DNA of 32,000 bases, taken from the NCBI GenBank assembly GCA_035568355.1, contig DATMOD010000055.1, positions 9,898 to 41,897 of the forward strand, read 5' to 3'. A model generated the notes under the pieces. The model ran no database searches. It saw only the letters and a program-made list of their open reading frames with translations, and was not told the origin of the DNA. The stretch is from Patescibacteria group bacterium (GTDB lineage: Bacteria > Patescibacteriota > Saccharimonadia > Saccharimonadales > EFPC-124). The translations under genes and the position numbers were made by a program. Shown piece after piece: positions 5,513-31,971 of this stretch. Numbering within the stretch: position 1 is the stretch's first letter; each line of letters opens with the position of its first letter.

Positions 5513-8500
5513 TTATTCGATAATTTGCTTGCCGCTGCGACTCATAACTCCAGATATAGGTAGCTTTAAATAGAAGGTTGTCCCTTTGTTTTCGACTGAT
5601 TCAAACCAAACCTCACCTCCGCAGCATTTAACGATGGCTTTTACTAGATAAAGTCCCAATCCAAAACCTTCTGCTGTTTTTGCGCGTACGTTGTCAGCAC
5701 GAAAAAGCTTAGTAAATATTCTACCCTGCTGGTTTTGGGGAATTCCATAGCCTGAGTCGCTCACTTTAATGGTTGCGCTGGTCCTGTCTTTAGTGACCGT
5801 CACGCCAATAAGCCCTTTTGGGGGAGTGTACTTGATGGCATTAGTCATCAGATTCTCAATTACAATTCTGAAAAGGCGTGAGTCATTATACATGACCAAC
5901 TTTTCGGGACAAACTATTCGAACATCTAGATCCTTTTCGTTTATTTGCTCCGAAAGTTCATTAAGCTGAGCATGAATTATAGGTATGATGTCCATATCTT
6001 TTGGGTCTATAGCAATACTGCCGGACTCAAGTCGGGATATGTTTAGTAGGGAACTGACAAGCTTAATCGTACGAACTATCGCCTCGTAAGCCCCACTTAT
6101 GTATATCTTTTGTTTAGGATCTAATTTTCCTGCCCCGCCATCTAGAAGCATCTCTGAATTCCACTTGGCTGCCGTTAGGGGAGTTCTTAATTGGTGCGAG
6201 GCTAGCGATACAAACTCAGTTTTGGCTTTATCAATGCTTGCTTCAAGTGTTAAGTCATGAACGATTTCAACGGCTCCTGTAACTTTACCATCAACAGATA
6301 TTGGGGTGATTGTGCCCCCTGCTATGAAAGTCGTGCCATTTTTACGCACATACATTAAGCTCTCACTCATCTCTATTCTTAACATCTTGTTGCTATTAAG
6401 CACCTTTGTAATCTTCCTATGTGAAAAAGGAATAGCGCGTTTATAGCTGTCGACCATGACTATAGCTTTAGCTAGTGGTTTACCGTAAACCTCTTCCTCT
6501 TTGTAGCCAAACATCTCAAAAAAACCATTATTAGTTAAGACGATTTTGCCATCATTATCAGTGACCACTAGAGCCTCGCCGATACTTGTCAAAATCGCCT
6601 CGTCTTTTTGGGCCACCAAAACTGCCTTACTTCGCTCTTTTTCGAGGTCTTCAGTGATCAGTTCGGCTAGTTTAAGCGCCTCACGACGACGATGCGCCAA
6701 TAGGACCACCGTGACAGCAGTCAGCAAGCTGGCAATAGCTCCGGCTAGCAAAACGCTATTCGAGCTAGTCAGTGTATCTGAGGGGATAGGGCTGCGCTGC
6801 AAGATAGATAAGGTGAGTTTATGGCCTGCAAAGGTAATGTCCCTACTAAACGCAACCTTGCTGTCATTATTAGTTTCTGAAGGTATCGATTTGAATATAA
6901 TATTCTTACTGCTGTCGTCATGCACGAACATACTTATATGACCACTCGAAGGATTGTTGGTAATAAAGTTCTGGAAGAATTGCTGATAACTAAATTGAGC
7001 GACTATAAAACCATTTAAGTCCGCAGGTTTGAATGTAGAAGGTGAATGTGCGCCTATTACAGGATGGCTATAAACTGCTATTGCAAGAAACATGCCTTGA
7101 TTGCTATTGATGTTTTTTGTAAACGATGGTATTCCTGACGCGCTTACACCTTCTGGCATTGCACTATACCTAGCTTTATCTAAGAGTTTAAGAGCTTGAG
7201 GATACTTAGCATAATCAACTCCAGATGGTATCTGTAGAGAAACTGGCACGACAAATGCAATCTGATATGACTGGTTTACCAAAGATGTGTTGCGCAGGAA
7301 TGCTATCGACGACAAAGCCGGATATCTATTTTGCAAGCCAGAGTTTATGAAGTAGTTTTCGAACCCCATAGCTTGAACAGAATTTGAAGACTGAAGAAAT
7401 GCCTTGTAGTCACGCAACACGTCTAAGTTAGCTTGCAGTTCGGTGCTCATAACACTAGCTAGACTGTTAAGCTCGGTAGCACGTTCGGCATTTTTTGAGT
7501 TTTGCCATATAAAGATACTCACCGTCATTGTAACCGCAAAAACAATTATGCCTTGCCAATAGTTCATAAAGATGCGAACCAAAATAGGGAATTGCCCAGT
7601 TGTTCGAGAAGCAATACCCATCAATGAGAGCTCAATACCAAAAAACACCACCATGGTGCCCAATTCTCGTGGTGTTGGTGTGCCAAGAACATTGGAGATG
7701 AGCACCCCGATAGTGGCTACTACGGCGACTATCAAAGCCGATCTAAACAACCGACTGCTAAGGCTAGAGCGACTAAAACGAATTAATGTCATTGGTATTA
7801 ACATACCTATAAAGATGAAGATAATTGCTACTGAAGTAGGGCACCTGAGGTTACCCTCGGCAGCTAGTTGACTAGAGAAAAGCCAACTATCAATAGGTAT
7901 TTTTATTCCGCTCAGAGCTCCCACTACAACCAAACTTCCGAATACGATCAACCATGCGCCGATCAGACCAATTGGCCATCGAAATCTGAGTTTATTTTTA
8001 GCGTTTAGGGTCAAAAATATGAGTGCAGAGGCGATCAAAATCATATTTAATGCAACCACAGGATTTCGCGGGTCATCTACTAGACCGAGTGTTTTTAAGT
8101 GTGAGTTGCTGCTATACCATCCAAACAAAACTAAGGTACCCAATAAACCAACAAGAAACGCGTAGGTTCGCACGATCAGGATCGCATTATTGTGTCGCTT
8201 TTTTCTACCCAATACCCAATTGACCGCTTCACTCCTAGTCTTAAAAATCATCGTTTTATTAACGACGGGACTTAGGCGGATTACGTATTGCGCGATTAGC
8301 GTTATAAAAGGGTTTGCCCCAAACACAGCGCTCTTGTCGACAACATAGTCTGTGGCTACACGAAGCACTTTTCTGGCATCTGCACTGACACCGGTGACAT
8401 TTGACACATCAGTTAACAAAAGTGTCTTTCTGCCCTGTTTAGCCAGTTTTCCAGTTCGTATTTTGCCATCTGCAAGCAATTGTTTGACTATGACATGTGT

Positions 8501-8689: not shown

Positions 8690-9748
8690 ATGAAGCAGGT
8701 CGCTATAATACTAGCCGGCGGCAAAGGTACGAGACTTTGGCCGTTATCTGACAGATTGCATCCGAAGCCTCTCATAGAAATCTTTAATAAAAGACCTATG
8801 TTCGAAGAGACGCTTCTTCGTGCAAAACTGTTCTCTGATGATATCTTTGTGCTAACTAACCAAAAGGTAGGCGATTTGGCGAGAAAATTGTTTTTAAAGT
8901 CGGGCATTGCTAGGGCCCAGGTCATTATTGAGCCATCTAAAGCGGATACTGGGGCTGCTATCCCTTACGCGATTGCGCATATACGCGCGCTCTTTGGCGA
9001 AGATACAACCATTACTCTTCTTCCGGTAGACCATCTTATCAAAAACTACGGCGCCTTTTATCGTGATATAAAATACGCAACCAAAATTGCAGCATCACAC
9101 TCGCAAGTCACTCTATTTGGTGTTACGCCGTCTTTTGCATCAACTGGCTATGGCTATATGAAGCTTGGTCCTGCTGTCGAGCATGAGGATCGTGATATGG
9201 TTTTTGTGGTCGACAATTTTCTAGAAAAGCCGGATGAAGAAAAAGCCAGCCAGTTTTTAAAAAGCGCAGATTACGTATGGAACAGTGGCATATATATTGG
9301 GACAATAGACGCTTTTGAAAACGTTTTTCGTAAAAATTCCCTAATCTTTAAATGGTATCTCTCACTCCAGACTAATAATGGCGGAACAACCTTGCCCCAT
9401 AATCTTCAAGATATTCAGTTTGAACGCGGGCTTATCGAACATATGGATTCGCTTCTTGCGGTTATAGCCACATTCGACTGGATGGATATCGGTACCTACA
9501 GTGGCCTGTACTCATCTTCGTCTCCAACGGATGATTCTGGGAACGCAGTCCAAGGCAACGCAAGGGCTCATGATTGCCACGATTGTCTTATTATGGGTAA
9601 TCATAAAAGGATTGTTGCACTTGGGCTAGATGATATTGCCATTATTGATGGGCCGGATGGTATTTTGGTGTGCAAAAAGTCAACCCATGCGCAGTTGGTG
9701 GGTAAGATTGCTGTAGGCGAGAGTCAGCCGGGTGATGACAGTGGATAA
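8690..9748 (+). CDS. manC: Mannose-1-phosphate guanylyltransferase-like nucleotidyltransferase (no C-terminal isomerase/cupin domain)
   Basis: The N-terminal ILAGGKGTRLWPLS motif with PKPLIE is typical of ManC/CpsB-type NTP transferases. The 352-aa length fits a transferase-only form. Confidence 0.75.
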   Translation: MKQVAIILAGGKGTRLWPLSDRLHPKPLIEIFNKRPMFEETLLRAKLFSDDIFVLTNQKVGDLARKLFLKSGIARAQVIIEPSKADTGAAIPYAIAHIRALFGEDTTITLLPVDHLIKNYGAFYRDIKYATKIAASHSQVTLFGVTPSFASTGYGYMKLGPAVEHEDRDMVFVVDNFLEKPDEEKASQFLKSADYVWNSGIYIGTIDAFENVFRKNSLIFKWYLSLQTNNGGTTLPHNLQDIQFERGLIEHMDSLLAVIATFDWMDIGTYSGLYSSSSPTDDSGNAVQGNARAHDCHDCLIMGNHKRIVALGLDDIAIIDGPDGILVCKKSTHAQLVGKIAVGESQPGDDSG

Positions 9749-10104: not shown

Positions 10105-11953
10105 ACTTAGCATCCTACTTGAGTCGGGCTTGCTAAAATCACACTATACGTCTGATATATTAGAAGGTTTTGGTCCAGCTGAATGGGTGCCGCGCCTCAT
10201 AGAAAAAGATCTGGTTAAGCACAAAGACCGCAACTTCTATAAAGCCCTAGCTAGACTTTATGGTCTTGAGTATGTGACACAAATCCAAACTCCGCTCAAT
10301 CCTAAAGAAGCCATTGCTTATCGGGTTCCTACACAAGTGCTTATTGAATCACAGCTTTACCCATTCGAGATTAACGGCAGACTTTTTATAGCATCGAGCA
10401 CTCCTTTTATTGAGAAAGCCTTGCTTGATAATGTACTGTCTTTTACCGGAAGAGCTGGATATAGAATTATACTTACAAGCCAGAACCAAGTTAGGAAAGC
10501 TCTCCAGACCTTATATTACATAGAATTCTCTGTTGTCGCTCAAAACAATCTGCGCTACTCCAAAAATGAGCTTTCAGCCAGCCCACCTGTTATCGCTTTA
10601 TCCGCGAAGATTGTCACTCTGTCAGGTTTTGCGATAATTATACTCGCATATATATTCCCTAATAGTCTTTTACTTGTGGTGTTCTTTATAATCAACCTGC
10701 TGTATCTATACCTTAATGCATTGAGATTTGCTACTTTTATCGTAGCGATAGTTCGCCCAGACAAAACTTCACTGATTGTCACAAAGCGTGAAGTAAGAGA
10801 GTTGTCTGATAGCTCTTTGCCTAGGTACACCATACTCGTGCCGTTACGTTTTGAGGCGGAGATAGCTGGGCGCTTAGTCAAGCGGCTTGTAGCACTTGAC
10901 TATCCCAAGAGTAAGCTGGAAGTCTTATTTCTTGTTGGTGTTGACGACGAACAAACAATCGCCACACTGCAAGAATATGGTGTTGATAGAGATGATCCTA
11001 CGGGCAGATATAACAATCTCAATCACATGACTATCGTAAAAGTTCCCAAAGTCCAGATTGATACAAAACCTTTAGTTTGTAATTACGGACTGCAATATGC
11101 AACGGGGAATTTTACAGTTATCTATGATGCTGAAGATAAGCCAGAAGTTGATCAGCTCAAAAAAGCCGTAGTTGGTTTTCAAGCCAGTGCCCTCAATACT
11201 ATTTGTCTACAGGGGAAGCTGAATTTTTATAATATCCACTGGAACGTACTTACTCGACTTTTCTCGCTTGAATATGGAATGTGGTATGGCTATTTTCTGC
11301 CAGGCCTTCAAGCTCTTGGTTCGCCGATTCCACTTGGTGGTACTAGTAACCATTTTGTTACCAATGCTCTAAGGAATGCTGGCGAATGGGATCCCTACAA
11401 CGTGACGGAGGACGCCGACCTTGGTATGCGTATTTACCGTAGTGGTCACCAGACTCGTATTTTAAACACATTTACCTATGAGGAAGCAACCTCAACGCTT
11501 GGAGCGTGGATTAAACAAAGATCTCGGTGGGAAAAAGGCTTTCTGGCAACATTAATTGTTCATGTCCAGCACCCAATTCAGCTATATCACGAACTTGGTG
11601 CCAAGAAGTTTATACTAGGTATTACAATATTTTTTGGTAATTTTTATATGCCGTTCATTAACCCGCTTTTATGGGTGCTGACAATTTTATGGCTCCTACA
11701 TATCTTCTCATTTGGTACCTTACCCACATATATATGGATTCCTGCGGTTGTAAATCTTGTTGTGGGCAATTCTATCCATATGATTATGCATTTTATGTCT
11801 GCAATACGATCCAAGCAATATACTCTCGCTCCGCTAGTACTTATAGTTCCTCTATATTGGATTCTAATTAGTATCGCGACTTACAGATCCTGCTGGGAGT
11901 TGCTTTTTCGCCCTTACCAATGGGTAAAGACTGCACATGGAGCCGACAGATAA
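10085..11953 (+). CDS. Processive family-2 glycosyltransferase (cellulose/chitin/hyaluronan-synthase-like) with an N-terminal T2SSE_N/MshEN-like domain
   Basis: GT2 signature series: ILVPLRFEAE, DYPKSKLEVLFLVGVDDE, VIYDAEDKP (DxD), TEDADLGMR (TED) and QRSRWEKG (QxxRW). TM helices flank the catalytic domain. The N-terminal ~150 aa (ALARLYGLEYVTQIQTPLNPKEAIAYRVPTQVLIESQLYPFEINGRLFIASSTPFIEKALLDNVLSFTGRAGYRIILTSQNQVRKAL) match the GspE/MshE N-terminal domain pattern as I remember it. Confidence 0.85.
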   Translation: MNNTVFKLSILLESGLLKSHYTSDILEGFGPAEWVPRLIEKDLVKHKDRNFYKALARLYGLEYVTQIQTPLNPKEAIAYRVPTQVLIESQLYPFEINGRLFIASSTPFIEKALLDNVLSFTGRAGYRIILTSQNQVRKALQTLYYIEFSVVAQNNLRYSKNELSASPPVIALSAKIVTLSGFAIIILAYIFPNSLLLVVFFIINLLYLYLNALRFATFIVAIVRPDKTSLIVTKREVRELSDSSLPRYTILVPLRFEAEIAGRLVKRLVALDYPKSKLEVLFLVGVDDEQTIATLQEYGVDRDDPTGRYNNLNHMTIVKVPKVQIDTKPLVCNYGLQYATGNFTVIYDAEDKPEVDQLKKAVVGFQASALNTICLQGKLNFYNIHWNVLTRLFSLEYGMWYGYFLPGLQALGSPIPLGGTSNHFVTNALRNAGEWDPYNVTEDADLGMRIYRSGHQTRILNTFTYEEATSTLGAWIKQRSRWEKGFLATLIVHVQHPIQLYHELGAKKFILGITIFFGNFYMPFINPLLWVLTILWLLHIFSFGTLPTYIWIPAVVNLVVGNSIHMIMHFMSAIRSKQYTLAPLVLIVPLYWILISIATYRSCWELLFRPYQWVKTAHGADR

Positions 11954-15593: not shown

Positions 15594-16178
15594 GTGCAAA
15601 AAAATATAACTGTACCTGTTTTTGATAATCTGGCTGAGCCTGAGCTAGTGAATATATTATTGGCTGGTGGCATTGGCGTATTGCTCACTGATACCATTTA
15701 CGGCTTGGTGGGGAGTGCTAGAATTCCTGATGCTTCTACCAAGGTCATGGACGTGAAAGGCCGTAAAGATAAACCAGGGACGCTGATAGCGGCTAACATA
15801 CAACAGCTTATAGATTCGGGCATACAGCGAGAGTACGTTAAGGCCGCCGAACAATTCTGGCCAGGCCCAGTTACAGTTGTTTTGCCCATAAAACCGGGGC
15901 TTGAATATCTTGATCTCGGCTTACATTCACTAGCAGTCAGAGTGCCAGATAACCCAGAGATTGTGACACTATTAAAAGAGGTTGGTCCACTGCTGACCAC
16001 CAGTGCCAATCGCCCCAACGAACCCACGGTCAAGAGCATAGAAGAAGCCCAAGAGATCTTTGGTAATCGTCTAGATTTCTATGTAAATGGTGGGCGTATT
16101 GAATCGCCGCTAGCTTCTACTATAATTCGCATTAAGATTGAATTGTTGCGCCAGGGCGCAGCGACTATTAACTGCTGA
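15594..16178 (+). CDS. tsaC: L-threonylcarbamoyladenylate synthase (YrdC/Sua5 family)
   Basis: LLTDTIYGLVG, KGRKDKPGTLIAA, GPVTVVLP, LAVRVPDNP and LLTTSANRPNEP. The track start 15483 would overlap the divergent nadD start by 32 nt. GTG 15594 places about 30 aa before the TDTIYG motif, as in characterised TsaC. The start remains uncertain. Confidence 0.8.
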   Translation: MQKNITVPVFDNLAEPELVNILLAGGIGVLLTDTIYGLVGSARIPDASTKVMDVKGRKDKPGTLIAANIQQLIDSGIQREYVKAAEQFWPGPVTVVLPIKPGLEYLDLGLHSLAVRVPDNPEIVTLLKEVGPLLTTSANRPNEPTVKSIEEAQEIFGNRLDFYVNGGRIESPLASTIIRIKIELLRQGAATINC

Positions 16179-16292
16179 CCCACACTTACTTTTTCATATT
16201 GAGAGGGTAAAAGCGTAGTGTAATCGTGACAAGCTATAGCTTGTCACGCGTGTAACGCACTCGAGAGATGAAAAAGTAAGTAAGTATGGGTC
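16177..16292. repeat. Nested inverted-repeat element (~116 nt) between tsaC and the next gene
   Basis: The outer arms CTTACTTTTTCAT (16185-16197) and ATGAAAAAGTAAG (16268-16280) are perfect. They extend to GACCCACA / TATGGGTC with a 4-nt bulge. A central perfect 22-bp palindrome GTGACAAGCTATAGCTTGTCAC sits at 16226-16247. Unpaired segments of 28 and 20 nt lie in between. Confidence 0.8.
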
Positions 16293-16351
16293 AGGATTTA
16301 CTGTTAGCCATCCACTTTCTGATATACTCGAAACAAATCAGGAGAACTATT

Positions 16352-20267: not shown

Positions 20268-20352
20268 CGTCATCCCCGGCTATGACCGGGGATCCAGTTT
20301 GAAGGAAGAATTCCATATTTGTCCTGGATTTCCAATCAAGTTGGGAATGACG
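20268..20352. repeat. Palindromic repeat element, intergenic copy (85 bp), in opposite orientation to the argS copy
   Basis: Its reverse complement aligns with 21880-21960. The left arm matches at 25/28 positions and the right arm at 26/30. The central AT-rich loops are unrelated. Confidence 0.85.
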
Positions 20353-20456: not shown

Positions 20457-22247
20457 ATGTCTTATGCTGTCGAAAAACAATTGGCTGAAGTAGCCAAAAC
20501 TATCAAAAAGATACTAAGTGTTGCTGAATTGCCAGCTATAGAGATTGCGAATTCAAAGTTCGATGCCGACTTTGCTTTGCCGTGTTTTACTCTGGCACGT
20601 GATTTGCATAAAAAACCACAAGAAATTGCCGAGCAGATTGTTGTCGGGCTCAATCATCCCGTAATTGCCAAGGCAGAAGCTAAAGCCGGGTTTGTTAATC
20701 TGTGGCTGAGTGATAGCGCCCTAGGATCTGCTCTAGGTGAGATCGTAACTAAACCTACCTACGGTGCTCAAAAGCTGCTTGATAAGCAAAAGATACTTAT
20801 AGAGGTGTATTCTACCAATCCTTTCAAAGATCTACATATTGGCCATGCTTATAATTCGATCGTGGGTGATACACTGGCTAATATTTTTAAGCTAGGTGGT
20901 GCTGATCTGCATCGTGTGAGCTATGGCGGCGATGTTGGCTTGCATGTGGGCAAGAGCATGTGGGCAATCCTTCGATATCTAGAAGGAGATATTTCTAAGC
21001 TGGACGTTGTAAAGTCTGGTGACCGTCCGGCATTCTTAAGTCGCATGTATGTAGAAGGGGCTGGTCAGTACGAAGAAGATTCAATCATCCGCCAGCAAAT
21101 AGACGTACTTGCCAGACAATCTTTTGTGCAAGATGATGCGTTTTTTAAGCAGGTCTACGAGATTTGCCGACAGTGGAGTTTTGATTATATTCATAAGATG
21201 ATCAAAAAAATGGGTAGTCAGCTCGCCGAGAGGGAGTATTGGGAAAACGAGGCTGATAAACTAGGTCGCCAGATAGTCGAGACTCACATCGGTGACGTGT
21301 TTGAGCGCAGTGAAGGCGCGATTGTCTTTAAGGGCGAGACCTACGGGTTGCATACTAGGGTTTTTATTACCTCGCATGATACGACGTTGTACGAAGCGCG
21401 CGATCTTGGGCTCATGCAACTCAAAGAGCAAGAGTATAACCCAGATAAAAGTTATTATCTTACGGCCGAAGAACAACGAGACTATTTTAAGGTTGTTTTA
21501 AAAGCAGCGCAGCTAAGCCTGCCCGAGCTAAAAGACAAGTCTGTTAACATATCGACCGGTACTGTCAAATTGAGTACTGGAAAGATGAGTAGCCGTACTG
21601 GTAAGGTTGTGAATATCGAAGGTTTGTTCAAAGAACTTAGCGAGGCCTTGAAAGCTCGCGGTGCAGAAGAAGACAATCTGCAAGCCGGGATTGTTGGCGC
21701 TCTGCGCTACGCCATGTTAAAAGTGCGGATTGGCGGTGATATTATCTTTGATATTAACGAATCAATCAGCCTCGAGGGTAACTCTGGCCCATATCTGCAG
21801 TATGCTCATGCTCGTGGTCGTAGTATTTTAGCTAAGCTTGCCGATAGTTCATCGACTGAAAAGTCATCGTCTTCTTCCAGTCATCCCCGACTTGATTGGG
21901 AATCCAGTAAGAAAAAAAGTTCATTATTAACTGGATCCCCGATCGGAGTCGGGGATGACGAAACAGGAGAAAAAACGTTTGTGGACTTTACTGCCGATGA
22001 ACACAAACTGGCAATCAAAGTTCTAGAATATCCAACTATAACGGCCAAAGCTATCAGCGAATTAGCGCCGCATCATATTTGTAATTATCTTTACGAGTTG
22101 ACTCAGCAGTTCAACCGTTTTTATGAACATAATCGGATCATTGGCGACCCACGCCAAAACCAAAGGGCCGAGTTGGTTAATTCTTACTGCCAGGTCTTAG
22201 AAAATGGGCTTGGTGTGCTTGGTATTCCAGCACCAGAAAGGTTATAA
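20457..22247 (+). CDS. argS: Arginine--tRNA ligase
   Basis: Class I signature NPFKDLHIGHAYNSIVGD (HIGH), KMSSRTGK (KMSKS-like), YLQYAHARGRSIL, and a C-terminal DALR-type anticodon-binding region ending in GIPAPERL. I prefer ATG 20457. The track uses TTG 20433. Confidence 0.9.
   Translation: MSYAVEKQLAEVAKTIKKILSVAELPAIEIANSKFDADFALPCFTLARDLHKKPQEIAEQIVVGLNHPVIAKAEAKAGFVNLWLSDSALGSALGEIVTKPTYGAQKLLDKQKILIEVYSTNPFKDLHIGHAYNSIVGDTLANIFKLGGADLHRVSYGGDVGLHVGKSMWAILRYLEGDISKLDVVKSGDRPAFLSRMYVEGAGQYEEDSIIRQQIDVLARQSFVQDDAFFKQVYEICRQWSFDYIHKMIKKMGSQLAEREYWENEADKLGRQIVETHIGDVFERSEGAIVFKGETYGLHTRVFITSHDTTLYEARDLGLMQLKEQEYNPDKSYYLTAEEQRDYFKVVLKAAQLSLPELKDKSVNISTGTVKLSTGKMSSRTGKVVNIEGLFKELSEALKARGAEEDNLQAGIVGALRYAMLKVRIGGDIIFDINESISLEGNSGPYLQYAHARGRSILAKLADSSSTEKSSSSSSHPRLDWESSKKKSSLLTGSPIGVGDDETGEKTFVDFTADEHKLAIKVLEYPTITAKAISELAPHHICNYLYELTQQFNRFYEHNRIIGDPRQNQRAELVNSYCQVLENGLGVLGIPAPERL
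21880..21960. repeat. Palindromic repeat element inserted in frame inside argS (81 bp, 27 codons)
   Basis: GTCATCCCCGACTTGATTGGGAATCCAG, a 23-nt AT-rich loop, then CTGGATCCCCGATCGGAGTCGGGGATGACG. The arms pair over about 28 bp with 3 G.T pairs, 1 mismatch and 1 bulge. The element encodes (S)HPRLDWESSKKKSSLLTGSPIGVGDD(E). Confidence 0.85.
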
Positions 22248-26299: not shown

Positions 26300-26620
26300 A
26301 TGATTACTCATAAAATGCTTGAAGATTACATATTGGAAATGCCCAATTCCAAACTAGATTATCCATTCGGAGAGGGGACAGCAGTCTACAAAGTAGGCGA
26401 TAAGATGTTTGCACTGATAAGCGAAAAATCAAACCCCGTGCATCTAAGCCTGAAATGTGACCCGCAACTAGCTGATTTGTTGAGAGATAAATACGAAACG
26501 GTATTGCCAGGCTATCATCTTAATAAAAAACATTGGAACACAATTATTTGCAGTGGCCAATTAGACGATCAAACGATAAAAGATTTAATTCTACACTCCT
26601 ACAACTTGGTCATAAACTAA
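26300..26620 (+). CDS. MmcQ/YjbR family DNA-binding protein
   Basis: YPFGEGTAVYKVGDKMFALI...LKCDPQLADLLRDKYETVLPGYHLNKKHWNTI matches the YjbR/MmcQ pattern. Confidence 0.75.
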   Translation: MITHKMLEDYILEMPNSKLDYPFGEGTAVYKVGDKMFALISEKSNPVHLSLKCDPQLADLLRDKYETVLPGYHLNKKHWNTIICSGQLDDQTIKDLILHSYNLVIN

Positions 26621-27200
26621 GGTTAGATAGCTGTGTCTGTAACGACTGAAGTGTTGTCAGTGCATTATCAAGCTTTTGCTGCCCATTCTTTGTGCTAGCC
26701 TTGTCTCTAGCAATTTGAATAGTCTCAATAACATGCACTACTTTGTTGAGCAATAAAGTGCGGTAGACTGTATCGTAACGGCCAGCTAATGACGCCTCTT
26801 TTAGTTTTGCATCACTGGTTGTGTCGGTCGCAGCTATAACTATGTCGCTTGTTAGGTCGGTTAGACCAAAATCTTCACTAAGCAAGCCGTGTAATTTGGA
26901 TGAGACGCTTAAAGTTAATATTTGTACATCGGAATTTATTTTTTTGAGATCGTTATTCTGAATATTGGATTGTTGACTAGTAGCAAAAGTATATAGGCTG
27001 TCTTGCTCGGCTACTAGTTTCATAAAGTCGTTTTTTGGTCCACTAGTAACTGCATTCTGGATCATTAAAGCTGCAATAAGCAACACTATTACGCCTAAAA
27101 CAATCAAGATTATTTTAGGCAGTTGACTTTTCTTCTCTGATACGTGGCTGTTGTAGGTGCCATAACTAAGATTGCTGGGGCTTTGTTCTGTCGGTGCCAT
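26610..27200 (-). CDS. Single-pass membrane-anchored hypothetical protein
   Basis: A 196-aa ORF with TM helix LPKIILIVLGVIVLLIAALMI and a predicted helical ectodomain. No motif recognised. It overlaps the convergent mmcQ-like 3' end by 11 nt. Confidence 0.55.
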   Translation of the reverse strand: MAPTEQSPSNLSYGTYNSHVSEKKSQLPKIILIVLGVIVLLIAALMIQNAVTSGPKNDFMKLVAEQDSLYTFATSQQSNIQNNDLKKINSDVQILTLSVSSKLHGLLSEDFGLTDLTSDIVIAATDTTSDAKLKEASLAGRYDTVYRTLLLNKVVHVIETIQIARDKASTKNGQQKLDNALTTLQSLQTQLSNLSL

Positions 27201-27215: not shown

Positions 27216-27254
27216 CACTGGGCTTACTTAAGGCTACATTCTGGCCCATTGTCA

Positions 27255-27375
27255 GCTGAGACGCCTGGCCATGCACTTTTTAATAACCACGAGCTGTCTA
27301 CCCTTGATCTGATAATTAAGATCGGTGTTTCGTTAAAGAGAGGTTATTAAAAAGTGCATGGCCAGGCGTCTCAGC
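27255..27375. repeat. Long hairpin element, copy 1 (121 nt): perfect 34-bp outer stem, conserved asymmetric internal loop, variable apical hairpin
   Basis: GCTGAGACGCCTGGCCATGCACTTTTTAATAACC (27255-27288) is the exact reverse complement of 27342-27375. The core ATGCAyTTTTTnATAACCACGAGCTGTCTACC ... TGTTTCGTTAAAGAGnGGTTATnwAAAArTGCAT is shared with 31861-31971. Confidence 0.85.
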
Positions 27376-27412
27376 TCTATGTAATCCCACTGATGTACAA
27401 TAGAGGTCAAAT

Positions 27413-29167
27413 ATGGATGCAAAAGAAGAGATCAGATCTAGGTTAAACATCGAGGACGTAATCGGTGACTACGTGCAGCTTAAACGAGCTGGTCGTAATT
27501 TTAAAGGTCTGTCGCCATTCAGTGGTGAGAAAACACCCAGTTTTGTAGTCAGCCCAGATAAACATATCTGGCATGACTTTAGTAGCAACAAGGGTGGTGA
27601 TGTTTTTAGCTTTATTATGGAAGTAGAAGGCCTGGATTTTCGTGGCACATTGGAGCTGCTGGCTCGCAAAGCTGGTGTAGACCTTAGTCTTTATCAGGCA
27701 CAGGGCGACAAGGGCCTAAGCCAAAAAAAAGAACGTCTTTATCAGGCCTTGGCCTTGGCGGTTAAATTTTATCAGCAAAATCTAGTGGCTAACCAGGCGG
27801 CTCTGCAATACGTGTTTGCCAAGCGTCAGTTCAGTAAAGAGATCGTGCAAAGATTTGGCATAGGCTATGCGCCAAACTTGTCCAGCGGGCTAACCGACAT
27901 TCTGATCAAACGTTGTTTTACGTCCGAAGAGCTGCATGGTGCGGGACTTAGCGTTGAGCGCAGGGGAAAACTTGGTGACATGTTTCGTGGCCGAATGGTA
28001 GTGCCGCTGTGTGATGCTCAAGGCAGGGTAGTGGGTTTTACAGCTCGTTTGATAGACGATCAGCCTGGCGCCCCAAAATATATTAATACTCCTCAGACTT
28101 TGATTTATGACAAAGGTCGCCAGGTTTTTGGCTTGCATATGGCTAAAGAGGCCATCAGACGTAACAACTATGCAGTGGTCATGGAGGGTAATCTTGATGT
28201 AGTAGCTAGCCATCAAGCTGGTGAAACAGCAGCCGTAGCAACAGCCGGAACATCTATAACTGAGTGGCATTTACGTAGCTTAAGCCGACTAACCAATGAT
28301 ATTCGCCTTTGCTTTGATGTTGATCGGGCCGGCATAGCTGCTACCGAGCGAGCAATTGGCATGTCTAGCCAAGCCGGCATACAACTGCAGATTATCAAGT
28401 TACCAGAAGGATACAAAGATCCGGATGAACTTATACGACAAGATCCAACCGAATGGCAGAGAGTAGTGCAACGGCCTCAAGACGCCATGGAATGGCTGCT
28501 CGATTACTACTCGGCGCAATACGATCTTAGTAAAGCAGAGGGCAAACGTCAGGTGACCTCTAAGGCGCTAGATATTGTGGGCCAACTTGTAGACCCGGTG
28601 GCTAAAGAGCACTATGTGCAGATGGTAGCCCTGAGAACTGGCGCCTCGGTGTCGGCTATTGGCACAAAATTACAGCAAATGACTGAGCCGCTTGATCTTG
28701 TTAAGATCAAGCCCAGTAAAGCCCAGATTACACAAACTCCCAAGCTGCATCTTTATCAAGATCATCTTTTAGCTCTGGCTTGGGTGTATCCACAATTGCG
28801 TGACAGCTTGTTAAAGCTCGAGTTTAATGATTTTGAAGGCACTACCCGACAGGCTGTGTACGGGCTCATTCATAAGCTCGACACACGGCAGCTTGAAGCC
28901 AATCAGGTAGATGGGTTGCAATCTGACAGACTTCGTGTCAAAATTAAGGAGTTAGAGCTCATTGTGGAGCAAAGGTACGCTACTTTAGACGATAGTCTTT
29001 ACTTTGTAGCAGCAGAATTATCAAAACGAGTGCTGGTAGACAAAAAGACAAAACAGAAAGACGAATTGGCTCGAGAGCTTAGTGATATGCAAGATCCAAT
29101 CCAAAGAAAAACAAAAAACAAGGCCTATAAAAAACTTATTCAAGAGATAGAGAGCTTAAAACATTAA
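27413..29167 (+). CDS. dnaG: DNA primase
   Basis: The N-terminal zinc-ribbon-homologous region contains EKTPSF. Toprim motifs are VVMEGNLDVVASHQAG (EGxxD) and LCFDVDRAGIAA (DxD). A helical domain forms the C-terminus. The gene lies directly upstream of rpoD, the classical dnaG-rpoD arrangement. Confidence 0.9.
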   Translation: MDAKEEIRSRLNIEDVIGDYVQLKRAGRNFKGLSPFSGEKTPSFVVSPDKHIWHDFSSNKGGDVFSFIMEVEGLDFRGTLELLARKAGVDLSLYQAQGDKGLSQKKERLYQALALAVKFYQQNLVANQAALQYVFAKRQFSKEIVQRFGIGYAPNLSSGLTDILIKRCFTSEELHGAGLSVERRGKLGDMFRGRMVVPLCDAQGRVVGFTARLIDDQPGAPKYINTPQTLIYDKGRQVFGLHMAKEAIRRNNYAVVMEGNLDVVASHQAGETAAVATAGTSITEWHLRSLSRLTNDIRLCFDVDRAGIAATERAIGMSSQAGIQLQIIKLPEGYKDPDELIRQDPTEWQRVVQRPQDAMEWLLDYYSAQYDLSKAEGKRQVTSKALDIVGQLVDPVAKEHYVQMVALRTGASVSAIGTKLQQMTEPLDLVKIKPSKAQITQTPKLHLYQDHLLALAWVYPQLRDSLLKLEFNDFEGTTRQAVYGLIHKLDTRQLEANQVDGLQSDRLRVKIKELELIVEQRYATLDDSLYFVAAELSKRVLVDKKTKQKDELARELSDMQDPIQRKTKNKAYKKLIQEIESLKH

Positions 29168-29170
29168 AGA

Positions 29171-30217
29171 GTGATTATGCCAAGAAAAAAGAAAGAATTT
29201 ATAGCACTTACCGATGGTGACCAAGACGAATCGGTGTTTTCTGAGGATGACAAAGCAGCAGCCCAGATTATTCCTGGCGTGCATGACGACGACGATCCAT
29301 TAGCCCAAGAACCAGTGCCAGACGAACTGGAAGAAGAGTGGCAAGAAGACGAAGATCTGACTACCAATCCATCTTATCTTGACGATATCTCAGATGACTC
29401 GGTGCGATTGTATTTGCGCGAGATTGGCAAGATACCACTGCTCACACCGACTGAAGAGTTGGCTTTGGCTCACAGAGTGCGGGATGGTGACAAAGTTGCC
29501 AAAGATAAAATGGCTGAAGCTAACATGCGTTTGGTAGTATCGATTGCTAAACGTTATAGTGGCCGTGGTTTAGACTTCTTGGATCTTATCCAAGAAGGTA
29601 ATACTGGTCTATTAAGGGCAGTAGAGAAGTTTGACCCTGATAAGGGTTTCAAATTCAGTACTTATGCCACTTGGTGGATTCGCCAGGCGATTACTCGGGC
29701 TATTGCCGATCAGGCACGGACCATTCGTATTCCTGTGCACATGGTAGAGACTATCAACAAGCTTTTGCGTACTCAACGGCGGCTGACCCAAGAGTTAAAT
29801 CGTGAGCCAACCAACGAAGAGATCGCTGCCGCCATGGAGATGGAAGTCGACAAGGTTGAATACGTGATGAAGATCAAACAAGACATCACCAGCCTTGATG
29901 CCAGCGTCCGTGACGACGACGACGATTCTGTTCTAGCTGACTTTATAGAAGACGATCAAACTATCGGTCCAGAAGATGCTGCTACGACTCAGCTACTAAA
30001 AGAGCAAGTCCAAGACATGCTTAATGTTTTGACTGATCGTGAACAAAAGATTGTAAAAATGCGTTTTGGTTTAGAAGACGGCAAAAGTCACACGCTAGAA
30101 GAAGTTGGCCAAGAGTTCAGCGTAACTCGTGAGCGTATTAGGCAGATTGAGGCTAAGGCCCTAAGCAAGCTCCGCAAGCATAAGGATGCTAAGAAGCTCT
30201 ACGATTACTTGCAATAG
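29171..30217 (+). CDS. rpoD: Primary RNA polymerase sigma factor (sigma70/RpoD)
   Basis: Acidic N-terminus. Region 1.2 is [16 protein letters not shown]. Region 2 is [54 protein letters not shown]. Region 4.2 is [28 protein letters not shown]. The start is GTG 29171 or ATG 29177. Confidence 0.92.
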
Positions 30218-31170: not shown

Positions 31171-31752
31171 TTATAACGTCTTTCTATTTAAAAAGTTGCG
31201 TTGCAGTTTGGTAGTCCCGCGTGCCAACAAAGATTTAACAGTGTTTTCTTTTTTGCCGATAATGTCAGCTATATCTTTTATAGGTTTTTTCTCAAAGAAT
31301 CTTAGAGTCAGCACCTCTTGGTATTTTATTGGCAGCTCTTTAAGTAAGGCTTGCACTAGTACAAAATCTGCATGTCTGTCGAGTTCGTCTTCTAATTTTA
31401 GTTGATCTTTTTCAAGATCTTGCGAGCTGGGTAATTCAAACCCTGTTTCTTCAAATAATTCGTCAAGTGATGAAGGTGCGTGTTTATTCTGCCTAAAATG
31501 TGTGTTCACCTCATTACTAGCAATCCTGTATAACCAGGCTCCAAAGGGAAGGCCCCGCCATTCAAACTCTGGTAGTCCCCGCCAAGCTTTAAAGAAAACT
31601 ATTGATGTTATATCCTGTGCGGACGATAAATCGCCAACTCGGCGTAAGACATAATTACTGATTTTTGAATAATACATATCAAACACCGCACTAAAAGCCT
31701 GGGCATCGGTTTTTGCTTGCTCAACGAGTTTTTGTTCTTCTTCTAGACCCAT
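31171..31752 (-). CDS. ECF-type RNA polymerase sigma factor (sigma70 family, regions 2 and 4)
   Basis: Region 2 is FSAVFDMYYSKISNYVLRRVGDLSSAQDITSIVFFKAW. Region 4 is YQEVLTLRFFEKKPIKDIADIIGKKENTVKSLLARG. Confidence 0.85.
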   Translation of the reverse strand: MGLEEEQKLVEQAKTDAQAFSAVFDMYYSKISNYVLRRVGDLSSAQDITSIVFFKAWRGLPEFEWRGLPFGAWLYRIASNEVNTHFRQNKHAPSSLDELFEETGFELPSSQDLEKDQLKLEDELDRHADFVLVQALLKELPIKYQEVLTLRFFEKKPIKDIADIIGKKENTVKSLLARGTTKLQRNFLNRKTL

Positions 31753-31860: not shown

Positions 31861-31971
31861 CCTAACCCATATGCATTTTTTCATAACCACGAGCTGTCTA
31901 CCACTTAATGTAATACTTAAAGACTAATGTTTCGTTAAAGAGTGGTTATGTAAAAATGCATATGGGTTAGG
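31861..31971. repeat. Long hairpin element, copy 2 (111 nt)
   Basis: CCTAACCCATATGCATTTTTTCATAACCA (31861-31889) pairs with TGGTTATGTAAAAATGCATATGGGTTAGG (31943-31971) at 28 of 29 positions. The conserved core is the same as in copy 1. The outermost stem and the apical region differ. Confidence 0.85.

Follow-up and report, generated by a model that had tools for sequence, protein, structure and literature searches.

Two long hairpins stand in promoter-proximal spacers of a 32,000-nt stretch of DNA from a Patescibacteria group bacterium (NCBI GenBank assembly GCA_035568355.1, contig DATMOD010000055.1, positions 9,898 to 41,897 of the forward strand; this whole stretch is called the window). 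One lies upstream of dnaG-rpoD and the other upstream of a sigma-factor gene of the extracytoplasmic function (ECF) type. Are they structured RNAs, inserts in older palindromes, or copies of a mobile DNA element? [quoted passage not shown] The copy upstream of dnaG was designated W1 (copy 1), that upstream of the ECF-type gene W2 (copy 2) and a third element of the window W3x; L numbers denote loci outside the window.

Arms, dispersed copies and flanking duplications

Both hairpins, described in an earlier note as elements of about 110–120 bp, were recovered at 27254–27376 and 31861–31971, and their core strands were identical. By the repeat finder, the W1 arms (27254–27288 / 27342–27376) were 35 nt long and 100% complementary (35/35), and the W2 arms (31861–31890 / 31942–31971) were 30 nt long and 97% complementary (29/30), in agreement with the near-perfect pairing (34/34 and 28/29) counted before. 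The palindrome of W1 thus extended 2 bp beyond its termini on each side (Table 1). Shuffled sequences never folded as well as the two hairpins, either as RNA (z = −12.1 for W1 and −8.6 for W2) or as DNA (z = −12.4 and −9.4). The core strands ACGAGCTGTCTACC and TGTTTCGTTAAAGAG each occurred exactly twice in the window, in W1 and W2 only and on the same strand.

The exact two-part core pattern matched five contigs of the soil metagenome Ga0210403, with no match in viral contigs or in GTDB genome representatives, and W2 gave no blastn match among plasmid or phage records. A covariance model was built from seven copies. Searching with it, as had been suggested earlier, revealed a sixth and more diverged Ga0210403 copy (L003, 7602–7707) and a weak match in the window at 16166–16303; 80 dnaG loci from other Saccharibacteria (~1.3 Mb) yielded none. 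The loci of the closest relatives were reached through DnaG and DnaA homologues, and copies were located in L087, L088 and L090 (Table 1). Nine copies were found beyond the window, spread over contigs of a soil metagenome and the genomes of two related Saccharibacteria (six in five Ga0210403 contigs, two in Ga0577623_0000004 and one in a Logan contig), giving eleven elements with this core and one with the same arms but another interior, at 12 loci. Among GTDB species representatives, the best match of the window DnaG was 64% identical, and the good matches were all metagenome-assembled genomes (MAGs) of Saccharibacteria (TM7), the group to which the organism belongs.

The element with another interior was W3x, which has a Sua5/YciO-family gene on one side and an unannotated one on the other. 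Its arms (CTGACCCACACTTACTTTTTCAT / ATGAAAAAGTAAGTAAGTATGGGTCAG) enclosed an interior containing its own palindrome with a 10-bp stem (GTGACAAGCT-ATAG-CTTGTCAC). The occurrence of the same arms round an unrelated interior indicated that the arms are a feature of the family, like terminal inverted repeats.

From two copies, the outer stems had been judged unrelated in sequence and the layout, with its conserved middle, the reverse of a MITE. Neither view survived the alignment of more copies. The arms of all copies, the stems of W1 and W2 included, fitted one consensus (5′-CTGACCCAYATGCACTTTTT); in the 12 elements they were 27–33 bp long, started with CTGAC(C)C and gave conserved termini CTGAC...GTCAG. 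What set the W1 arms apart was mainly an added GCCTGG on the left, mirrored on the right by its exact complement CCAGGC.

For duplications of the target site, the two 9-mers that adjoin the homologous CTGAC...GTCAG termini on the outside were compared with each other in all 12 elements. Perfect 9-bp repeats were seen in L003b (ATTTTTGTT) and L090 (CTTCTGTAT). Seven of nine positions matched in W3x (flanks TATTAACTG, 16166–16174, and GATTTACTG, 16295–16303) and in L001, six in L005 and L088, and five in L002, while the remaining five copies, among them W1 and W2 with three each, had 1–3/9. Summed over all elements, 60 of 108 positions matched, against 27.5 ± 4.6 for random 9-mer pairs at equal spacing (maximum 47 in 20,000 draws). 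Sliding either boundary by 1–4 nt abolished the signal unless both were slid in register. For W2 and L087, the CCTAACCC-type copies, the better fit was an 8-bp repeat shifted outward by one base (CTCTGGGG / AACTGGGT, 5/8, and TATTGACA / TATTGATT, 6/8, respectively).

Since the duplications lay outside the arms, arms and core were inserted as one and the arms belong to the mobile unit, as expected of a MITE-type transposon using a staggered cut of 8–9 bp. The further features were also those of MITEs: the elements were 105–120 bp long and non-coding, were bounded by terminal inverted repeats with a register-specific flanking duplication (absent or unrecognisable in four to five copies), and were dispersed over 12 loci, with presence or absence differing between related genomes. 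A DDE-type transposase supplied in trans would move the element, cutting the target with a stagger of 8–9 bp and so giving rise to the duplications; this class of enzyme is suggested by the length of the duplication.

Concerted change of the arms and constancy of the core

Within copies, the 224 aligned arm positions comprised 206 Watson-Crick pairs, 2 G.U pairs, 3 C.A pairs, 7 other mismatches and 6 gaps. Double changes were found in 19 of the 42 predicted pairs, which bore out the covarying stems proposed from W1 and W2. A process at the DNA level, also favoured earlier, gained support as wobble pairs were enriched on neither strand and the 6-bp insertion was symmetric in the W1 arms. In L001 and L090, both arms had a run of four T/A, against five in most copies. 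The palindrome ran 4–6 bp past the terminus into the flank in L002, L003a and L004, and the direct repeat was degraded there. Arm divergence grew gradually away from the core, with no sharp boundary. L003b combined its perfect duplication with imperfect arms and a diverged core, indicating that perfect arms are not strictly needed for insertion. The pattern points to complementarity kept up at the DNA level, by templated copying between the arms.

The correction of inverted-repeat arms by template switching, and their homogenisation, are described in PMC7202029 and PMC8604942. As presented there, quasipalindrome template switching accounts for concerted double changes, symmetric indels and outward palindrome growth without selection. 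It is described mainly for short loops in E. coli and yeast, whereas the element here is mobile and has a spacer of ~55 nt. Once one arm had changed, intrastrand template switching at the hairpin extruded in replicating DNA would rewrite one arm on the model of its partner, and the same process could have produced the symmetric 6-bp insertion of W1 and the growth of palindromes by 4–6 bp into the flanks at the expense of the duplication. The family offers a clean natural case of inverted-repeat arms evolving in concert. As DNA palindromes can mimic covarying RNA helices, it is also a warning for covariation-based RNA discovery.

Between copies, the arms differed pairwise by a mean of 32–41% and the apical segment by 35–40%, but the core strands by only 2–5%; in more distant genomes the cores relaxed to ACrArCTGTCTAyC and TrTyTyGwTAAAGAG. 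This much lower variability indicated that the cores are under constraint and the arms constrained mainly to pair. Judged from their conservation, the cores most likely serve transposition as subterminal sites to which a transposase or a host architectural protein binds, in which case selection would work through the line of active copies. Structure-specific recognition of the cores, or a host function for them, may also be considered. The core strands had been called non-complementary; on paper ~11 pairs are possible (ACGA/TCGT, CTGTCT/AGAC-AG), but such pairing is unsupported because compensatory changes were absent. The apical hairpin, described before as non-conserved, was variable, but five copies shared recognisable sequence there.

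Weighing of the explanations

Several points count against a MITE. The greater conservation of the cores than of the terminal repeats is uncommon among MITEs and leaves room for a host-level function or structure-specific recognition. Four copies, W1 and W2 included, had no convincing duplication at the 9-bp register. An autonomous partner, i.e. a transposase between the same ends, was not found in the window or in the ~1.5 Mb examined, nor was a full-length insertion sequence (IS) bounded by the same arms found in the window, the 12 lineage loci or the 80 loci of relatives. Template switching would have to span a spacer of ~55 nt, which is plausible. A clean empty site was not obtained at nucleotide resolution. 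The comparison of related genomes proposed earlier could be made between L088 and L090, and it gave a remnant instead of an unoccupied site: L088 kept a solo arm (CTGACCCACGCTCATTTTTCTATATC, 9025–9050) where L090 carried its intact copy with the perfect 9-bp duplication.

Among known systems, the hairpin MITEs (Correia/NEMIS of Neisseria, ERIC/IRU of enterobacteria and RUP of pneumococci) are similar in being ~100–150 bp long and non-coding, with terminal inverted repeats, a target-site duplication, a whole element forming an imperfect palindrome and many intergenic copies, often beside promoters. No sequence relation to them is known, though no database test was made of it. They make a TA or other short duplication, against 8–9 bp here, and the present family differs also in that its most conserved parts are non-complementary subterminal strands and that its host is a Saccharibacterium with a reduced genome. 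In the IS4 family, a DDE transposase with a YREK motif acts on CT/CA ends and duplicates 9–12 bp of target; IS10/IS50-type ends start with 5′-CTGA and give 9-bp duplications. The 5′-CTGAC terminus and the 9-bp duplication of the present elements recall these ends, as a lead only. The L003a end CTGACCCTTATGTAC also bears a short likeness to the Tn5 outside end (CTGACTCTTATACAC), likewise a lead. Other IS families too give 8–9 bp duplications.

A structured RNA, i.e. a small RNA gene or cis-regulatory leader whose stem is kept by selection on the RNA and whose internal loops bind a protein or ligand, would agree with the strong covariation of the stem, the highly conserved, non-complementary internal strands and the promoter-proximal position of both window copies, and several one-sided changes in the putative inner helix between the cores gave G.U on the plus strand. 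This inner helix (ACGA/TCGT, CTGTCT/AGAC) was rejected as evidence for RNA, since wobble cells (8) were balanced by broken ones (6) and double compensation was zero. In the arms, G.U pairs were outnumbered by C.A and other mismatches; perfect helices of 27–35 bp are atypical of functional bacterial RNAs, a symmetric 6-bp insertion cannot come from point-wise compensation, and the flanking direct repeats of 8–9 bp show DNA transposition. The orientation to co-directional flanking genes was mixed, with five copies antisense (L001, L003a, L004, L005 and L087) and two sense (L088 and L090). Rfam, the check that the earlier note had named for novelty, gave no match at the gathering score in the window or five loci; in E-value mode W1 matched nothing and W2 matched only plant miRNA-precursor models, which are generic long hairpins, below threshold and on both strands. 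No promoter-like or terminator-like site was detected in W1 and no relation of the element to tRNA or tmRNA. A conserved open reading frame (ORF) through the element was likewise rejected, as stops occurred in nearly all frames of all copies. Together, the pairing and concerted changes of the arms, the inner helix, the mixed orientation and the closed reading frames argued against an RNA gene or leader, which we consider very unlikely. The other proposal of the earlier note, an inner element (the core with ATAACC / GGTTAT) inserting at the centre of perfect palindromes that were already there, could draw on W3x, readable as one palindrome with a different insert. It is left with almost no probability, as the direct repeats flank the arms at CTGAC / GTCAG, so that the arms came with the core; the divergence of the arms is gradual, and joined arms without an interior were not found in the sequences examined.

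Recognition of a folded strand has to be weighed as well. REPINs, hairpins formed by doublets of repetitive extragenic palindromic (REP) sequences, have conserved REP-sequence ends, are not known to make a target duplication and need a single-copy HUH (RAYT) gene. The present elements are also mobile hairpins of ~100 nt with compensatory changes, but have CTGAC-type inverted repeats and 8–9 bp duplications. Duplications of this kind are not known to be made by HUH enzymes (IS200/IS605, RAYT) or by integron-type recombination. A REPIN-like or attC-like single-stranded hairpin, with an HUH or tyrosine enzyme recognising the structure and the core bulges and with selection on arm complementarity, would predict the pattern seen, including arms better kept than the flanking duplications in several copies, and compensatory changes across the hairpin are common in REPINs (PMC3116915). 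Neither the GTAG / CGTC head of REP sequences nor the attC R-box GTTRRRY was present in W1 or W2; the R″ / R′ boxes of integron attC sites (RYYYAAC ... GTTRRRY) were absent, and the copies were scattered singly among housekeeping genes. The window held no candidate enzyme gene and no RAYT gene. Because of the duplications and the termini, conserved as in classical inverted repeats, the element is not regarded as a REPIN, attC or IS200/IS605-type element, and an origin of this kind is quite unlikely. A dispersed protein-binding site (for a nucleoid protein, a regulator or a promoter module), spread originally by transposition and since domesticated by the host, with selection at every locus preserving the core for a chromosomal function, would explain cores changed by ~1% where the flanking duplications had decayed by 20–70%, and why several copies occupy promoter regions or the dnaA-dnaN spacer. 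As a clock the duplications are not clean, since palindrome extension overwrites them; the window genome had no copy in common with its syntenic relative at an orthologous site, some copies are decayed and a solo arm was seen, and W1 had no promoter-like or terminator-like site, leaving domestication with a very small chance. Unlikely, too, is a long-lived hairpin replicator of Saccharibacteria recognised by its shape, in which a stem of free sequence presents two fixed, non-complementary internal strands. Its stem would be re-perfected by hairpin-templated synthesis; it would be REPIN-like yet make 8–9 bp duplications, possibly relying on one domesticated transposase or on a core with a role in the host. 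If true, a mobile element would here have a distinct means of persisting in a genome of ~1 Mb.

Genomic setting of the copies and other repeats

The coordinates of the elements and their parts are collected in Table 1.

Table 1. Elements of the family in the window and in three related loci
Feature	Position	Strand	Details
W1, terminus to terminus	27256..27374	+	119 bp; 125 bits with the covariance model
W1 left terminal inverted repeat, CTGAGACGCCTGGCCATGCACTTTTTAATAACC	27256..27288	+	33/33 Watson-Crick pairs with right arm; contains the GCCTGG insertion
W1 left core strand, ACGAGCTGTCTACC	27289..27302	+	conserved; not the complement of the right core
W1 variable apical segment	27303..27325	+	small local hairpin GATCT...AGATC
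W1 right core strand, TGTTTCGTTAAAGAG	27326..27340	+	
W1 right terminal inverted repeat	27342..27374	+	
W2, terminus to terminus	31862..31970	+	109 bp; 129.6 bits with the covariance model; 26/27 arm pairs
W2 left terminal inverted repeat, CTAACCCATATGCATTTTTTCATAACC	31862..31888	+	
W2 left core strand	31889..31902	+	
W2 right core strand	31928..31942	+	
W2 right terminal inverted repeat	31944..31970	+	
W3x	16175..16294	+	terminal inverted repeats as in W1 and W2; unrelated 70-nt interior
Copy in L087	595-704		between pyrG and argS
Copy in L088	9419-9523		between rnpA and rpmH
Copy in L090	9048-9152		between yidC and rnpA

By Pfam, the neighbours of the two hairpins were dnaG (27413–29167), rpoD (29171–30217) and the ECF-type sigma gene (31171–31752, minus strand). 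W1 sat in the divergent spacer between a gene for 196 aa (26610–27200, minus strand) and dnaG, and ended 36–38 nt before the ATG, consistent with the 38 nt given earlier. A TGT(T)ACAAT motif, 11–19 nt before the dnaG ATG, was common to the window (27391–27399) and the related loci L007 (~9980) and L087 (~9975). This motif probably serves dnaG-rpoD as the −10 region of their promoter, implying a very short leader. W1 lay ~18 nt upstream of the motif, and its place is thus probably the upstream portion of the dnaG promoter region and not the mRNA. In L007, the spacer from the minus-strand gene to dnaG was at most ~70 nt and had no hairpin. L087 was syntenic with the window (argS, DUF5667 gene, yjbR, 195-aa gene, dnaG, rpoD) and had a NUDIX gene before dnaG and no element there. 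W2 was located 109 nt upstream of the ECF-type gene and was followed at ~31985 by GAGGAG, resembling a Shine-Dalgarno sequence, which suggested that a plus-strand gene probably begins just beyond the end of the window.

A Logan contig (SRR7098091_7464505, L006) starts 71 nt before dnaG, at the position of window base 27342. This is the first base, at the inner edge, of the W1 right arm, and evidently the perfect palindrome of W1 breaks assemblies.

The association with sigma-factor operons, noted when only W1 and W2 were known, proved coincidental, as the other copies adjoined many unrelated genes: metallopeptidase genes, a beta-lactamase-family gene with tRNA-Met, glycosyltransferase genes, tRNA-Ser, dnaA/dnaN, rnpA/rpmH, yidC/rnpA and pyrG/argS. 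The L005 copy (7351–7455; the same site as L092 5470–5574) occupied the dnaA-dnaN spacer, where oriC is commonly found, and was within a called ORF of 150 aa (99 aa in relatives) that read through it in frame. Being only 40% identical between genomes whose DnaA proteins were 85% identical, this ORF is possibly not a true gene. The stop codon of rnpA in L090 was TCA (TGA on the coding strand) inside the terminal GGGTCAG of the element, and the solo arm of L088 likewise supplied the rnpA stop codon.

No paper on MITEs in Saccharibacteria or other Patescibacteria was found. These bacteria have very small genomes, and the density of the family, about one copy for every 10 kb of the regions sampled, shows small mobile DNA actively reshaping them, with copies reaching the spacers that hold the promoters of dnaG-rpoD and of the ECF sigma gene, the dnaA-dnaN spacer and the 3′ end of rnpA.

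Two further palindromes were recorded. At L087 4836–4962, between the RNase T and DUF5667 genes, there was a degenerate hairpin with W3x-like arms (ATAACCCACACTCATTTTC... / ...AAAGTAAGTGTGGAT); the syntenic position of the window had just an 81-nt spacer. At a contig end of the Saccharibacteria MAG UBA4727 (L015, 1–120), a perfect palindrome with 55-bp arms contained TTAAAGAGCTGGCTACC, which resembles both core strands joined. It scored 41.8 bits with the covariance model and was not accepted as a copy, being treated as a probable assembly artefact or chance match.

Other repeats were noted as well. Next to the L004 element (~7395–7440, minus strand), CTCGACCTGCGGTTCGAATCCCGCTCGATCA resembled a tRNA 3′ half, although no tRNA was called there by ARAGORN; its first 12 bases (CTCGACCTGCGG) recurred at 10640–10652, the end of the locus, and it may be a tRNA-fragment repeat or an att-like site. 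Three copies of the repeat CAAACCCATTTGTAAATGAGTGAGCCGGGG were found in L005 (10048, 10651 and 12150; also in L092), all within ~2 kb upstream of dnaA. In the window, tandem 24-nt repeats of the GGTGTTGG / GGCACAGG type (761–852) lay in a minus-strand ORF (636–917) with no Pfam match. A second repeat family of the window (20269–20351 and 21880–21959) consisted of ~28-nt units (GTCATCCCCG...CGGGGATCCAG) in inverted doublets with a REPIN-like layout, one upstream of argS and the other within its reading frame. The latter adds an in-frame insert of 38 aa (SSSSSHPRLDWESSKKKSSLLTGSPIGVGDDETGEKT), which is absent from the L087 ortholog and resembles the Rickettsia palindromic elements.

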